Shown piece by piece: positions 730 to 62,228 of a stretch of DNA of 64,000 nucleotides. Numbering within the stretch: the first letter of the stretch is position 1; the number at the start of each line of letters is the position of its first letter. The notes beneath the pieces are model-generated. The model saw nothing but the letters and a program-made list of their open reading frames with translations. It had not been told where the DNA came from and made no database searches. The position numbers and the translations under genes are program-made. This DNA comes from Shigella phage PSD9, in sequence record MZ561532, one strand, 5' to 3'.

Positions 730-1299
730 CTAAAAATCCAACATTTTTAAATGAATTGTTTTGTACTCGATTTCGTACGGGTCCCTTTTGACGGTTTCGA
801 TTTCAACAATCTCAAATCTTGATAGGCTGGAGACCATGAACTCACATTCAGTTTCAACCATATCATAGAGGTCAATACGGGTTTCATCTATTTCAAGCTC
901 ATCCACATTCCCTGCAAGAACAAGGTCGATAGCATGATTGTAGTAGTCGAAAATGAACGGTGCATTCCTGAGACTTAAAATGGTTTTGGTTCCATATTCC
1001 CATGCCCCTGCGAATTGACGAGCCTGAGAGTATTGTGTACTAAAAGAAGTAACTCGACCAGGAGACCATTGACAACCTACTGAAAGGAGCTCTAATTGCT
1101 CAAGTTCTCTGGTGGTAATCCCACGATACAACTCTACTGGAACCGCTGAAGTAACATGCTTGCGAACCAGTTTGTCAAGGTCGTAATGGAAGTTAGGGTC
1201 TTTTTTAGCATCCAGACATTTTTCTAAAAGATTCTGTTCGTGTTTTGAGAATTTGGAATTGATTCGGTCTTGATAAAGACATTTTTGTTCGATGTTCAT
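730..1299 (-). CDS. ADP-ribosyltransferase, ModA/ModB-like
   Basis: R-S-E ART triad (LYRGI ... TSFST ... ELEIDE); tandem paralog of the previous ORF. Confidence 0.55.
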   Translation of the reverse strand: MNIEQKCLYQDRINSKFSKHEQNLLEKCLDAKKDPNFHYDLDKLVRKHVTSAVPVELYRGITTRELEQLELLSVGCQWSPGRVTSFSTQYSQARQFAGAWEYGTKTILSLRNAPFIFDYYNHAIDLVLAGNVDELEIDETRIDLYDMVETECEFMVSSLSRFEIVEIETVKRDPYEIEYKTIHLKMLDF

Positions 1300-1310
1300 A
1301 TGACCTCCGG

Positions 1311-1352
1311 TGATTTAGAGGTCATTATAACATGAAGGGAGGAGGTGTAAAA
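1311..1352 (-). promoter_or_regulatory. early-promoter-like cassette (degenerate copy)
   Basis: GTTTTAC -35-like block plus TATAAT-like block upstream of the 730..1299 start. Confidence 0.35.
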
Positions 1353-3002: not shown

Positions 3003-3006
3003 ATAA

Positions 3007-3240
3007 TTAAACTACTGGGGTCGGCGTGAACATTGCTGCGTTCTTAGTTCGCCAATCGGCTGCATCAGTCACTACAGTAGTATAGGCTGCAACGGCCGAA
3101 GGGAAAGTCTGATAATGAGAGTCTGCAATACGGTGCTCGTTTGAATAAATCTCAAACGGGACCGAAACCTCAGTACCTTTAACTTCTTTACCTTCACCAG
3201 CTGGATGTGTAAAGGTTTTGATATTAACGAAACCACCCAT
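3007..3240 (-). CDS. soc: small outer capsid protein Soc
   Basis: direct similarity to T4 Soc (VNIKTF ... SHYQTFPS ... AAYTTV); late promoter upstream. Confidence 0.8.
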   Translation of the reverse strand: MGGFVNIKTFTHPAGEGKEVKGTEVSVPFEIYSNEHRIADSHYQTFPSAVAAYTTVVTDAADWRTKNAAMFTPTPVV

Positions 3241-3271
3241 AATTAACTCCTTTGTTGTTTAATTACAGGTG

Positions 3272-3279
3272 TATTTATA
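3272..3279 (-). promoter_or_regulatory. late promoter TATAAATA
   Basis: plus tatttata = minus TATAAATA about 30 nt upstream of the soc start. Confidence 0.55.
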
Positions 3280-28144: not shown

Positions 28145-28411
28145 TTAATCCTTTGGAGTCAATTCAATAGTGAAGTAGAAATTAGCGTTCTCAACATGAT
28201 AACGGTAATCTACGTTATTGTCAGGAGAAGTGAATTCAATATTCCTGACGTTAAGTGGGTCAATATCAATAGGAAGGCCTTTAACATCCCGTAATATCAA
28301 TTTAATAAAATAAGGGAGTGCTTCGAAGTCTTCCATTCCATCTAAAAGTGGAGTGATATTAATCTGATGTTCCATATAAAAAATCCAGTTCACCGACTTT
28401 AGGTTCGGCAC
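28145..28411 (-). CDS. hypothetical protein (88 aa)
   Basis: minus-strand ORF overlapping the gene 55 stop. Confidence 0.4.
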
Positions 28412-28916
28412 TCTTATCAGACCCTGGTGCTTTAGTTAAAGAGGTTTCATACTGAGTCATTTTGTCGTAGATATCTTGGATAAAGGTTTCATCTGCAATA
28501 CCTACCATGTCGTCATCATTACTGTCATAGACATTATGGACGAAGTAGCTATATTTCTTTGCCATTTCTTTACGTTCTTTTTTGATACGCTGAACGAAGG
28601 CATTAAAACAAGCCATAGTGATATATGCATGTGGGTTGTCGTATTTTGTTTCGTCGAAGTTGTGAAGACCTTTAATCGAAGCTTCGATTCCATCAGCAAT
28701 CATTTCTTGCTTCCAAGATTGGGTATATCCTGAGAAGTTGAAACGTTTACTTAGTCCTTCAGCAATGAGCATAATAGCCAAGCCGATAACGTCGTTCTGG
28801 CGAACTATTTTATTAGGATCGGTATTTTCTCTGAGTTCTGTTTTCCATTGGGTGATAGCTTTCAGAAGCTCCTTATTATTTACATAGTTATTTTTAGTCA
28901 GTTTAATTTCGGTCAT
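28359..28916 (-). CDS. 55: late-transcription sigma factor gp55
   Basis: colinear with T4 gp55 (NYVNNKELL ... [55 protein letters not shown] ...). Confidence 0.95.
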
Positions 28917-31980: not shown

Positions 31981-33054
31981 TTAAGATTTCAAATAAGTTA
32001 TATAACTTTCCAACCATTCAATCATTTCTGATTTTTCGGCAGTAGTCATAGGATTAACTATATCTTTAAAACTGTTAAGCATTACTTGAGACGTAACTTT
32101 TGTCTTTTCGGTTTTTACCAATTCGATAGAGCCAAGTTTTTTAATATGGTCTTCTTTGCTTTCGACTACTAATTTAACAGCTCTTCCATCTTTAATAGCT
32201 TTGTTAGCCTGACCGCGAGTCATACCGTAAAATTCTTCTAACTCGGAATTGGATAAAAATTTTGTTCCTGAAGAAACGTCCTGAAATTTATAACGCTGAC
32301 GAGCAATATCTGGTGGAAGGCCCCATCGGTCTTTAATTAGGTCGAGGGTTCCTTGAAGAAGCCTTGTTAAATGGTTGCTACTTAAATCATTATTACGAGC
32401 GAATTCGTTTTGATTTATTACTTCCACCGGCTTGTTTTCTTCATAGTCCCATATAGTAAATTTAGAGCAATTATAGGTAACAGAATGTTTTTCCATTTTA
32501 GAACGACCAAATTGCCATCCAGATTTAATATACTCACTAACTTCATCAGGTTTAACGTACTTGGTTTTCTGGCCAATTTTATACATCATAGGCCAAGAAA
32601 CATGCTCATTCCCTTTATCAAATTCCATCCATCTTGCAATATCATCCTCTGTTAAATCGTCAAAGCAGTTAGGGTTGAAATGCCCGCCAATTTGTTTATT
32701 GAGCCACATAGGGTCTCGTAAAACATCATTGGCTAATTGCATTTCCATTTCTGCCATAAGAGTTTTACCCCAAGTAGGGTACCATCCTACAATAAGATAT
32801 TCTTTTGGACTTATACCCTTTTCTATCATTGCGTTCAATTCATTGGATGATGAGGTATAGGTTTTCCAATCAGATTCCTCAAACCCTTTTTTAGGACCAC
32901 GTTTAAATGTGCAAGGTGCAGCTTTGATTCGTTTCCAAATCTTTTTAGCACCGACATATTTTTTGCCATCTTCAAAAGTGATTACATACACAAATCCAAT
33001 ATAATTTTTAATATCAACTTCTTCAAATACCGCCCAATGCCCGAAATCTTGCAT
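31981..33054 (-). CDS. putative GIY-YIG homing endonuclease (Seg-like)
   Basis: N-terminal GFVYVITFEDGKKYVGAKK GIY-YIG-like block; 357 aa; lies where T4 carries nrdD/nrdG. Confidence 0.45.
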   Translation of the reverse strand: MQDFGHWAVFEEVDIKNYIGFVYVITFEDGKKYVGAKKIWKRIKAAPCTFKRGPKKGFEESDWKTYTSSSNELNAMIEKGISPKEYLIVGWYPTWGKTLMAEMEMQLANDVLRDPMWLNKQIGGHFNPNCFDDLTEDDIARWMEFDKGNEHVSWPMMYKIGQKTKYVKPDEVSEYIKSGWQFGRSKMEKHSVTYNCSKFTIWDYEENKPVEVINQNEFARNNDLSSNHLTRLLQGTLDLIKDRWGLPPDIARQRYKFQDVSSGTKFLSNSELEEFYGMTRGQANKAIKDGRAVKLVVESKEDHIKKLGSIELVKTEKTKVTSQVMLNSFKDIVNPMTTAEKSEMIEWLESYITYLKS

Positions 33055-33091
33055 GACCTATACCCTTACCATTATTAGATAAGGGTATTTA

Positions 33092-33277
33092 TTATTTTTC
33101 AAATGTACTATAAAACGAGCGATGCAAACGTTTAAATTGGCGAATCATCTTTTTAGTAGGACGGGTGTATAATCCTACACAGGTGGCCATAAACTGGTCA
33201 GTTGGACTTCCTTTAATAAGAAGTTTCCAGACCTTGGCACCGTTTAACTTTTCGGTATAGACTAATACAGTTTTCAT
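33092..33277 (-). CDS. hypothetical protein (61 aa)
   Basis: minus-strand ORF. Confidence 0.35.
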   Translation of the reverse strand: MKTVLVYTEKLNGAKVWKLLIKGSPTDQFMATCVGLYTRPTKKMIRQFKRLHRSFYSTFEK

Positions 33278-40500: not shown

Positions 40501-40524
40501 ATAAAAGGCCCGAAGGCCTTTTAT
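40501..40524 (-). terminator. intrinsic terminator hairpin
   Basis: aaaggcc-cgaa-ggccttt palindrome with flanking T-run, at the 3' end of the NTase gene. Confidence 0.55.
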
Positions 40525-51010: not shown

Positions 51011-51499
51011 TTATCTATAAGCAGCCCATGTGCCGGTTTTAAAGGTGGCGATAACACGCTTAGCACGATTAGGAGTTTGTTTATACCAACGGGATTGAGC
51101 CAGGTTAACTGCTGCATCGTTCCAACGTTTCTGTTGGAGCATACGTAAAGAGTTAGTGAACCCTGCTACACCTGCTTCACCCATTTGGAATACCATATTA
51201 ATCAGTGCACAACGACGAACTTCGTCCAATACATCATAAACAGGTTTCAATTTAGGATTACGCAGAATAGCTCTACGAGCATTTTCAACCGATCGATTAA
51301 AGAGTTGCTCGGCTTCAGCCATAGTAATACGACCATTACAAACTCGACCCATAAGCTTATCAAGTTCAGCACGAGCAACATCTTTAGAAGGGTTCTTAGT
51401 AATCAATTGGCCAATACCAATAGTCCAATAACCTTCAGTGTCTTTATAAAGATTTAAATCAAGACCTTCGTCTTGACGTAACATATCAAAAATATCCAT
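51011..51499 (-). CDS. e: lysozyme (endolysin) E
   Basis: colinear with T4 lysozyme ([17 protein letters not shown] ... [43 protein letters not shown] ...). Confidence 0.95.
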
Positions 51500-51500
51500 A

Positions 51501-51529
51501 ATACCTCCTGAGTATAGGAGGTATTTATA
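51501..51529 (-). promoter_or_regulatory. RBS-sequestering hairpin overlapped by late promoter TATAAATA
   Basis: inverted repeat atacctcct/aggaggtat (51501-51524) contains the SD of e; minus-strand TATAAATA at 51522-51529. Confidence 0.6.
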
Positions 51530-51979
51530 TCAAAAGAGCGAATCTAAAACCTTAAACATCGACGGGCCCATGACATATTCCCATTGCGGACGTTTAATCA
51601 AGGCAAAAGCATCAAATTCAGGAATAGTACGACCATCAGGGAACGTATGGTAAGCCGTACATTTGCAATCCTTGAACTGCTCGTGTTCCACAGGCACTGT
51701 ATATAAGAACAGATGTAGATTCTTATTGCTTGAATATTTGAACTCACCTAGGTCTTTCAGGAACGCAGGATCGTATGCTGTGAATCCAATCTCTTCTTCG
51801 GTTTCGCGCATTGCCGCTTGAATAGGCTCTTCGCCTGGTTCGACATGACCCTTAGGAATGTCCCATTTATGACGCATATTCTCTGGATTACGAGAGCCTG
51901 TTACACGGCCCATGACCAGTTCTTTATCAACGGTCATGAATAAAATACCGGCAGATAGTTCTTTCACTTTCTTACTCAT
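51530..51979 (-). CDS. nudE: Nudix hydrolase NudE
   Basis: Nudix box GHVEPGEEPIQAAMRETEEEIGF; start adjusted to MSKKVKEL (149 aa). Confidence 0.8.
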   Translation of the reverse strand: MSKKVKELSAGILFMTVDKELVMGRVTGSRNPENMRHKWDIPKGHVEPGEEPIQAAMRETEEEIGFTAYDPAFLKDLGEFKYSSNKNLHLFLYTVPVEHEQFKDCKCTAYHTFPDGRTIPEFDAFALIKRPQWEYVMGPSMFKVLDSLF

Positions 51980-53728: not shown

Positions 53729-53771
53729 GTTTTGATAGGTCTATAGTATCACACCTATAGACCTTGTACAC
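53729..53771 (-). promoter_or_regulatory. early promoter cassette (GTACAC variant)
   Basis: gttttgataggtctatagtatca ... ccttgtacac. Confidence 0.5.
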
Positions 53772-59104: not shown

Positions 59105-59659
59105 TCAGTTCTTGTAGAACCGGAATGGGTTTATGTGGAAGGCTAACATAGCCTTAGGGATTTTACGAGACAAAAGGCTCTTAAGCTTCCAACCACAGTA
59201 CACGCGAAGGTAAAAGGTAATCCCACCAACCTTAAGATATGGAACTGAAGCAAATACACCCCAGGCGTCGTCATTCCACATCCATAACCATCCGTGATGA
59301 GCTTTATCAGGAGAACCGGATTCCACGTCGGGATTACCTCGATAATGGAATTCCGAGCTACAATCACGACCGAGTTTATGGTAAGCAAAGTTATAAGCTT
59401 TATTTCGCCATAGCCAAGCTACTCTCTGAAGATAAACACCACCCGGCATTTTCCTGATGTTAGCCCAACGTTTAATATGACCTTTGTCGCCGTCAATTGG
59501 ATTATCGTATGTCATCATCCAATCAAAGCCATATGGTAATTTACCGGTCTTTTTATTGTGGAAAGGGACTACAAAAGGTGCAAGGATAACAGCCAGAACC
59601 ATAGAGATAAAATCTAGAGGAACCAACAGTACCCAACTCAAATATTTTAAAAGTTTCAT
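59105..59659 (-). CDS. hypothetical membrane protein (184 aa)
   Basis: N-terminal TM helix; Trp/His-rich; late promoter upstream; flanked by identical terminators. Confidence 0.45.
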   Translation of the reverse strand: MKLLKYLSWVLLVPLDFISMVLAVILAPFVVPFHNKKTGKLPYGFDWMMTYDNPIDGDKGHIKRWANIRKMPGGVYLQRVAWLWRNKAYNFAYHKLGRDCSSEFHYRGNPDVESGSPDKAHHGWLWMWNDDAWGVFASVPYLKVGGITFYLRVYCGWKLKSLLSRKIPKAMLAFHINPFRFYKN

Positions 59660-59866: not shown

Positions 59867-60108
59867 TCAAAAACGCTACTCGGCTTACGGCAAAGATATT
59901 TCCTCGAATCGATAATTCGGTGCGCCGTTTCTGCTGTGATGTAAGGGGACGTTAACAGATCGTAAAGATTTGTTAATGCCAGTCCTTACTCAGGGAACAT
60001 CAGTCCGACGACTTACCGGTAGCGACCCGGTTTCTTGTTTGTTGCGCCGGTGAATGCTGGTAATCAGTCTTCATACGACGGCTTGACTATATAATAGTCT
60101 TCATTTGG

Positions 60109-60180
60109 TATCCCGCCCTGGGATCGAACCAGGACCGCAAACTTAGAAGGATCGTATGCTATCCATTACACCAGCGGGAC
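60109..60180 (-). tRNA. tRNA-Arg (anticodon UCU)
   Basis: hand-folded cloverleaf: acceptor GTCCCGC/GCGGGAT, D-loop AATGGATA, anticodon loop CTTCTAA, T-arm CCTGG-TTCGATC-CCAGG. Confidence 0.6.
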
Positions 60181-60188
60181 GTAGTTGG

Positions 60189-60262
60189 TGACCCAGACCA
60201 GATTTGAACTGGTAACCTTTCCCTTATGAGGGGACTGCTGCTAACCATTGAGCTACAGGGCC
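60189..60262 (-). tRNA. tRNA with CAU anticodon (Ile2-like or Met)
   Basis: hand-folded: GGCCC acceptor start, D-loop AATGGTTAG, anticodon loop CTCATAA, T-arm ACCAG-TTCAAAT-CTGGT; several stem mismatches. Confidence 0.5.
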
Positions 60263-60540: not shown

Positions 60541-60708
60541 CTCAAATAAAATTAAGTAAAGTAAGTTTGATTAATAGACCTTGTCTATTATGAAAGGTTC
60601 TTTGAGGGAAGAACCTTTGGTAATAGAGGGTATTAATGATAGAGTAATAATAACACATTACTCTTAAAGCATATTACTATTTTTAGGAATAGTCTGGTCA
60701 AATTTGAT

Positions 60709-62183: not shown

Positions 62184-62228
62184 TTTTGATAGGTCTATAG
62201 TATCATGCCTATAGACCTTGTAAACAAC
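62184..62228 (-). promoter_or_regulatory. early promoter cassette
   Basis: gttttgataggtctatagtatca ... ccttgtaaac. Confidence 0.55.

Follow-up and report, generated by a model that had tools for sequence, protein, structure and literature searches.

The lysozyme gene leader of a JS98-like phage very probably carries the T4 gene e translational switch

Introduction

The mechanism which times translation of the lysozyme gene e in bacteriophage T4 was reportedly demonstrated by McPheeters et al. (1986, NAR 14:5813). The leaders of two other T4 genes, soc and gene 49, also contain structures which inhibit initiation of translation in long transcripts. In the case of gene e, long early transcripts run into the gene and form an inhibitory structure, and lysozyme synthesis is cut roughly 100-fold; two late promoters each give RNAs which lack the 5′ part of this structure and are translated (reviewed by Uzan & Miller 2010, PMC3014915). 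Similar leaders, each with a late promoter where the 5′ strand is encoded, were predicted for closely related T4-type phages (PMC3014915, Figure 5A). The same design, i.e., a late promoter combined with a hairpin over the ribosome-binding site (RBS), is found in I-TevI, I-TevII, I-TevIII, segB and Aeh1 mobE, and soc, e, 39, 25 and 26 were named as further cases by Edgell, Gibb & Belfort in 2010 (PMC2988022).

Here, we analyzed 64,000 nucleotides of DNA from Shigella phage PSD9 (sequence record MZ561532), referred to below as the window. A first-pass annotation of this DNA had compared the start of its lysozyme gene with the timing device of T4 lysozyme, and the parallel agrees with the descriptions available for T4 and its relatives (PMC3014915). 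In the literature on the T4-type e switch we found no paper treating JS98-type phages specifically.

Anatomy of the lysozyme leader

The 1.3 kb around the site are 99.3% identical to Escherichia phage LQ5 and 92–98% identical to QL01, WG01, JS10 and JS98 (92% for the latter), and by its sequence the window is assigned to Dhakavirus (JS98-like), i.e., to the T4-like Straboviridae. Gene e is preceded by nudE and followed by an ipIII-like gene and denV, the latter recognized by Pfam Pyr_excise. Annotated relatives carry e, nudE and ipIII, and the synteny nudE–e–ipIII–denV supports orthology with T4 e. Coordinates of all features are collected in Table 1.

Table 1. Features of the lysozyme leader and of other loci in the window
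Feature	Position	Strand	Remarks
nudE (e.1), Nudix hydrolase gene	51530..51979	(-)	ORF list; Pfam NUDIX 7.5e-15; 60% identity to T4 NudE
nudE stop codon TGA	51532-51530	(-)	abuts box TATAAATA directly
T4-type late promoter box TATAAATA, RNA form UAUAAAUA	51529-51522	(-)	putative promoter positions -13 to -6
Hairpin 5′ arm AAUACCUCCU	51525-51516	(-)	anti-SD CCUCCU = promoter positions -5 to +1
Hairpin loop AUACUC, 6 nt	51515-51510	(-)
Hairpin 3′ arm AGGAGGUAUU	51509-51500	(-)	Shine-Dalgarno (SD) AGGAGG at 51509-51504
Gene e, soluble lysozyme/endolysin, 162 aa	51011..51499	(-)	ATG 51499-51497; Pfam Phage_lysozyme; 74% amino acid identity to T4 e
Predicted late transcription start	~51516 (+/- 2)	(-)	from box geometry
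gp55 homologue, late sigma factor needed for TATAAATA use	28362..28916	(-)	tblastn with T4 gp55: 79% identity over 186 aa, E = 2e-96
SegE-type GIY-YIG homing endonuclease gene leader	33052-33093, before ORF 31981-33054	(-)	Pfam PF19835, 5e-34
soc (small outer capsid protein) leader	3228-3279, before soc 3006-3240 (ATG 3240)	(-)	Pfam Soc, 3e-17
ORF 730-1299 (189 aa) leader	1297-1352	(-)	TTTACA-16-TATAAT, -10 hexamer 1329-1324

Read along the minus strand, the leader passes from cucuuuUGA, which is the end of CUCUUUUGA and contains the nudE stop codon, through UAUAAAUA, CCUCCU, AUACUC and AGGAGGUAUU to the AUG of e. The inverted repeat of the first-pass annotation, atacctcct (51524-51516) and aggaggtat (51509-51501), is present, and one additional A-U pair extends it to a perfect stem of 10 bp, all Watson-Crick, between 51525-51516 and 51509-51500. 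The minus-strand TATAAATA which it had placed at 51522-51529, overlapping the upstream arm, lies exactly there. This box shares 4 nt with the start of the 5′ arm, which itself begins 4 nt past the nudE stop codon, and the six nucleotides directly 3′ of the box are the anti-SD CCUCCU. Extended by 31 nt, the nudE-coding RNA includes the complete hairpin.

A T4 late promoter is an 8-bp box located about one helical turn upstream of the start, with its first position at -13, and A(-13) is the commonest variant of the box (Geiduschek & Kassavetis, PMC2988020). With the first position at -13, position -6 falls at 51522 and +1 at approximately 51516, which is the last nucleotide of the 5′ arm; since +1 lies at the end of this arm, the predicted late RNA could not form the hairpin. 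The earlier idea that late transcripts begin inside the hairpin and leave the SD free is thus supported. A second late promoter located in the loop is absent, as only one TATAAATA occurs in the leader. A search of Rfam with 51300-51800 (E <= 1) returned no match, so no curated family covers the element.

Folding of read-through and late RNAs

In a 101-nt read-through RNA the hairpin is a feature of both the minimum free energy (MFE) and the centroid structure (RNAfold), and the SD AGGAGG is base-paired there, as had been claimed. The hairpin alone has a free energy of -13.1 kcal/mol, and the probability that the GGAGG core of the SD is unpaired is 0.00 in read-through RNAs. We also calculated the opening cost, i.e., the free energy required to unpair the RNA from the SD through AUG+3. 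For RNAs with 5′ ends at 51560 or farther upstream (60–400 nt before the ATG) this cost was 12.3–15.9 kcal/mol, and it was ~14–15 kcal/mol for RNAs beginning only at 51530 or 51525. RNAs beginning at 51516-51513 required 3.7–5.4 kcal/mol. Folding of both leaders, which had been suggested as a check together with the original observation, therefore gives an RBS opening cost of 12–16 kcal/mol for read-through versus 4–5 kcal/mol for late RNA.

None of the five partners of the SD core remains in the predicted late RNA of the window, in which the SD is partly paired with the coding sequence (probability of being unpaired 0.1–0.3, ~4 kcal/mol to open). The same calculation performed for T4 gave 14.6–17.0 kcal/mol for read-through versus 1.2–4.1 kcal/mol for late RNA, the late values being ~4 kcal/mol for the first late promoter and 1–2 kcal/mol for the second. 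The early–late difference of ~10 kcal/mol found here is equal to that computed for the experimentally characterized T4.

Conservation of the leader in Straboviridae

Loci for comparison, from IMG/VR and from annotated phage records, were gathered with a lysozyme protein query or a coding-plus-leader DNA query, not with the hairpin motif, and the Straboviridae leaders among them were reduced to 14 distinct sequences. These represent seven named genera (Tequatrovirus, Dhakavirus, Mosigvirus, Gaprivervirus, Gelderlandvirus, Karamvirus and Jiaodavirus, the last one being Jiaodavirus-type Klebsiella phages), and unclassified Klebsiella phages and metagenome contigs were also included. Every leader (14/14) contains the core ATAAATAC, an anti-SD, a loop of 4–8 nt and an SD, and directly 5′ of the anti-SD, ATAAATAC shows no variation in any of them, despite diverged flanks. 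When each leader was folded individually, positions G1–G4 of the SD were paired in all 14; the pairing is centered on GGAG, and the SD of e serves as the 3′ arm. In none of the 14 do nucleotides which pair with the SD core lie downstream of the predicted +1.

The stems occur in two registers. In the first one, shared by T4, Dhaka-, Mosig-, Gapriver- and Gelderlandvirus, the box and the spacer contribute to the stem (AAUA/UAUU). The second one is found in Karamvirus, in the Klebsiella-phage leaders (HMGUkp2, Roth78/KPV15) and in related metagenome contigs; these have lost one C behind the box and have UCCU as the spacer, and their stem is instead prolonged towards the loop (UAUC/GAUA). Compensatory changes were observed at three pairs, namely U-A to C-G (VR26 SD), C-G to A-U (L017) and C-G to A-U on the loop side. 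In a covariance-model alignment, which leans towards the structure it was built on, canonical pairs fill 85% of cells versus 38–56% when the partners are slid, and three pairs carry double-sided changes; shuffling gave 0.7 such pairs, and 6 of 500 shuffles attained three. The covariation is modest because the SD and the box are each constrained otherwise, and most stem pairs are invariant. Scored with this model, the window reaches 53.6 bits and T4 47.5 bits, values which add little, as they are expected by construction since both are among its eight source sequences. RNAalifold applied to a plain MAFFT alignment of the 14 leaders gave a consensus of only 5 pairs (-0.8 kcal/mol), because the loss of the C after the box in one lineage group shifts the 5′ arms out of register; this consensus was replaced by per-sequence folding and the covariance-model alignment.

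Outside Straboviridae, phage ECGD1 (Justusliebigvirus) has a related lysozyme, and its leader contains neither the box nor the hairpin. Distant T4-type lysozyme genes (40–50% identity) were also found at L031/L033, L034/L035 and L036 (~1440-1503), on viral contigs of ~18–35 kb derived mostly from bacterial isolate genomes. At these loci an anti-SD pairs with the SD (CCUC/GAGG), and the hairpin encloses an ATAAATA-like box 3′ of the anti-SD; in L036, the gene that follows is preceded by another element of this kind (1997-2039). No match between these contigs and catalogued phages was found outside the lysozyme gene, therefore the loci were left out as evidence. They may represent the same logic in another geometry, or a coincidence. 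In lysozyme homologues at L022-L029 (~1470-1500; 54% identity), the SD is covered by a UUCCUU/AAGGAA hairpin whose loop sequence contains TAA triplets; this would suggest translational coupling rather than a promoter switch if the upstream gene ends at these triplets.

Plausible read-through transcription into gene e

All ORFs from ~63.9 kb down to e lie on the minus strand. On this strand, upstream of e, we found matches to sigma70-type/early promoters at 58256-58228 (11/12 positions) and 58713-58685 and an early-promoter-like element at ~53775-53745. MotA-box middle-promoter matches lie at 59252, 60671 and 60905. A terminator scan detected no terminator-like site in the nudE–e interval, and on the minus strand in the 8.5 kb upstream it gave two weak matches only, none of any strength. 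Since no strong terminator but several promoter-like sites were found upstream, early or middle read-through transcription into e is plausible in this phage. In the whole window, MotA-box matches (TGCTTNA-N11-13-TANNNT) are enriched (14 versus 3.5 expected), with 9 of 14 on the minus strand. Genes for tRNA-Arg(tct) and tRNA-Met(cat) lie at 60106-60262 on the minus strand, ~8.6 kb upstream of e, and form a cluster far smaller than that of T4.

Alternatively, the hairpin might act mainly at the end of nudE, as a terminator or a 3′-end stabilizer of the early message, and the occlusion of the SD would then be incidental. Its position 4 nt after the nudE stop codon and a run of five U residues downstream (51486-51482) agree with such a role. 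However, the U run begins 13 nt past the stem instead of adjoining it, and the site was not flagged by the terminator scan. Moreover, all 14 lineages use the SD of e as the 3′ arm and always center the pairing on GGAG, and in T4 early transcription reportedly continues into e (PMC3014915). We thus consider a function at the nudE end very unlikely. Processing by RNase III was set aside, as a 10-bp stem is too short. For RegB, we considered cleavage of the SD at GGAG; this enzyme cuts accessible sites, and GGAG is paired in the early RNA here.

The putative late promoter box

The bare TATAAATA occurs six times in the window versus 6.9 expected, which is not above chance. Its core ATAAATA is strongly depleted, approximately threefold (8 occurrences versus 26.9 +/- 5.6 expected), and seven of the eight occurrences are on the transcribed (minus) strand. 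Four of the six TATAAATA boxes are located 5–45 nt upstream of an SD and an ATG opening an ORF of at least 60 aa (binomial P = 2.5e-5). Considering this depletion together with the placement, the motif behaves as a selected signal, retained only where it is used. The box in the lysozyme leader is therefore a credible candidate signal through its placement and conservation, and not through its frequency. In T4 late promoters, the stretch immediately following the box is usually A+T-rich (PMC2988020), and the CCTCC found directly downstream of the box here is G+C-rich; because of this segment the strength of the late promoter is uncertain.

The same segment gives some room to the idea that the hairpin does block translation while TATAAATA is silent, the structure being opened in another way, for example through processing of the late RNA or through translational coupling, with ribosomes that terminate at the nudE stop codon. 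A G+C-rich stretch at -5..-1 is atypical of T4 late promoters (PMC2988020), the nudE stop is nearer to the stem than in T4 (4 versus 8 nt), and the number of bare motifs, as stated above, does not exceed chance. Nevertheless, a silent box would hardly be expected to leave ATAAATAC invariant 5′ of the anti-SD in 14/14 leaders whose flanks have diverged, in a window where ATAAATA is otherwise avoided and gp55 is present. The equivalent box of T4 gives mapped late 5′ ends (PMC3014915), and a ribosome terminating at nudE would, we infer, reach only the A-U base of the stem. We find it highly improbable that the box is silent.

A perfect palindrome overlapping a promoter could in principle be a DNA operator, bound by a dimeric protein in a manner resembling autorepression by I-TevI, and operators over T4 late promoters have a precedent (PMC2988022). 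However, the length of the loop (4–8 nt) and the register vary among the leaders, so that what persists is the complementarity, and not the sequence or spacing of half-sites, and lysozyme is no DNA-binding protein; an operator function is exceedingly unlikely. Finally, although TATAAATA is as frequent as expected in this A+T-rich window, co-occurrence of the palindrome and the AT-rich octamer by mere chance is effectively refuted, as a perfect 10-bp hairpin is rare (0.75 expected per window) and the arrangement recurs at the homologous position, with compensatory changes, in seven named genera and in further lineages.

Related elements in the window

The logic of an anti-SD embedded in a promoter is seen four times in the window, including one case with a sigma70-type early promoter. 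Apart from e, the leader of the GIY-YIG homing endonuclease gene has a late-promoter variant, AATAAATA (33093-33086), which shares nucleotides with the 5′ arm of a hairpin of 11 bp (AUACCCUUAUC/GGUAAGGGUAU) covering the likely SD, with a predicted RBS opening cost of 16.8 kcal/mol for read-through versus 7.1 kcal/mol for late RNA. This matches the design described for T4 homing-endonuclease genes. In the soc leader, TATAAATA (3279-3272) is followed by a 13-bp stem (CACCUGUAAUUAA/UUAAUUAUGGGUG) which pairs the AUG; the opening cost is 12.5 kcal/mol in read-through versus 5.2 kcal/mol in late RNA, and the late RNA retains the weak A-U half of the stem. The sigma70-type case precedes ORF 730-1299, where a 9-bp hairpin (AUGACCUCU/GGAGGUCAU) directly follows the promoter and buries the SD GGAGG, with 16.2 kcal/mol required in read-through RNA versus 3.3 kcal/mol in RNA starting 6–8 nt past the -10 hexamer. 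To our knowledge, this sigma70-promoter version has no previous description. The product of ORF 730-1299 gave no hit in Pfam; it may be ModA/ModB-like, judging from ADP-ribosyltransferase-like R/S/E motifs recognized by eye.

Perfect stems of at least 10 bp with loops of 3–10 nt occur five times in the window versus 0.75 +/- 1.1 in dinucleotide shuffles. Near-identical perfect 10-bp palindromes, AGGTCTATAG...CTATAGACCT, lie at 53737-53764 and 62191-62218, 8.4 kb apart. On the minus strand, both are within an early-promoter-like (T)TTACA-16-TACTAT just upstream of a small gene; neither is a terminator. Two more perfect 10-bp short-loop hairpins are ATAAAAGGCCCGAAGGCCTTTTAT (40501-40524), which looks like a bidirectional intrinsic terminator, and AAAGGTTCTTTGAGGGAAGAACCTTT (60593-60618), located near the tRNA genes.

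Proposed mechanism and its standing

Homology, geometry, folding and comparative data support the interpretation of the lysozyme leader as a switch, and we are highly confident that the element is the Dhakavirus orthologue of the translational switch of T4 gene e. Early in infection, RNAs from early or middle promoters kilobases upstream would run through nudE into e. In such read-through RNA, AAUACCUCCU would pair with AGGAGGUAUU and lock the SD in the 10-bp hairpin (~-13 kcal/mol), so that 30S subunits could not bind to the occluded SD and no lysozyme would be made. After the onset of replication, RNA polymerase carrying gp55 would recognize TATAAATA (51529-51522) and start ~6 nt downstream, near 51516. 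The late RNA would begin at the loop, without the anti-SD arm, and would be translated. Of this scheme, the anatomy of the leader, its homology to T4, the presence of gp55, the computed folding energies and the conservation across genera are shown here; read-through transcription in this phage, the precise position of the late 5′ end and the extent to which translation is blocked are inferred.

The mechanism is already known from T4, and only minor lineage-specific differences are seen here. JS98-like coliphages are often proposed for phage therapy, and the timing of their lysis enzyme very probably uses the classic T4 device. What is gained are exact coordinates for annotation of the late promoter, the predicted late start and the translational operator; conceptually, nothing new is added. 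The single promoter, the Watson-Crick stem and the abutting stop codon are relevant only for comparing or engineering lysis timing between genera. More tentatively, the e leaders of Tevenvirinae might follow a common scheme, in which the anti-SD always occupies positions -5..-1 of the box's promoter, in two registers, and promoter and translational operator are coupled within ~15 nt, with the minimal form present in Dhakaviruses. ‘Translate only from my own promoter’ could then be a general and predictable rule in T4-like genomes rather than a peculiarity of some late genes, a possibility to which we lend somewhat less than even weight.

Comparison with known systems

The leader of the window is, judged by the alignment, plainly homologous to the T4 e leader (L001, UUUUAUAAAUACCUUCUAUAAAUACUUAGGAGGUAUUAUG). 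Between the box and the ATG they differ by one arm substitution, two loop substitutions and a 4-nt loop deletion, the T4 loop region being CUAUAAAUACUU / AUAAAUACUU versus AUACUC here. Both leaders belong to the orthologous gene, with nudE upstream and ipIII downstream; in both, the AAUA base of the 5′ arm is shared with TATAAATA, the box is followed by the anti-SD, and the SD AGGAGG together with the spacer UAUU makes up the 3′ arm. However, T4 has two late promoters and the window only one, as the TATAAATA of the T4 loop is removed by the 4-nt deletion and the two substitutions. Among the genera sampled, a second late box was found only in Tequatrovirus leaders, and the two tandem promoters are a T4-specific detail which does not define the mechanism. 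The loop is also shorter (6 nt versus 8–10 nt in T4), and the arm substitution, C for U, turns the U·G pair of T4 into C-G, which makes the stem of the window perfect. Finally, the nudE stop codon abuts the box, whereas 3 nt lie between them in T4, and it is 4 nt away from the stem versus 8 nt in T4.

The homing-endonuclease genes of the T4 family share the logic of the switch: early or middle read-through RNA hides the RBS, and a late promoter in or beside the 5′ arm gives a translatable RNA. The genes themselves are unrelated, however, their hairpin sequences are not homologous, and I-TevI also represses its own promoter. T4 soc and gene 49 resemble e in being late genes within earlier transcription units, with the start region paired in long RNAs, as is also seen for the soc gene of the window; in soc, in contrast to e, the AUG and not the SD is in the stem, and the late RNA retains part of the 5′ arm.
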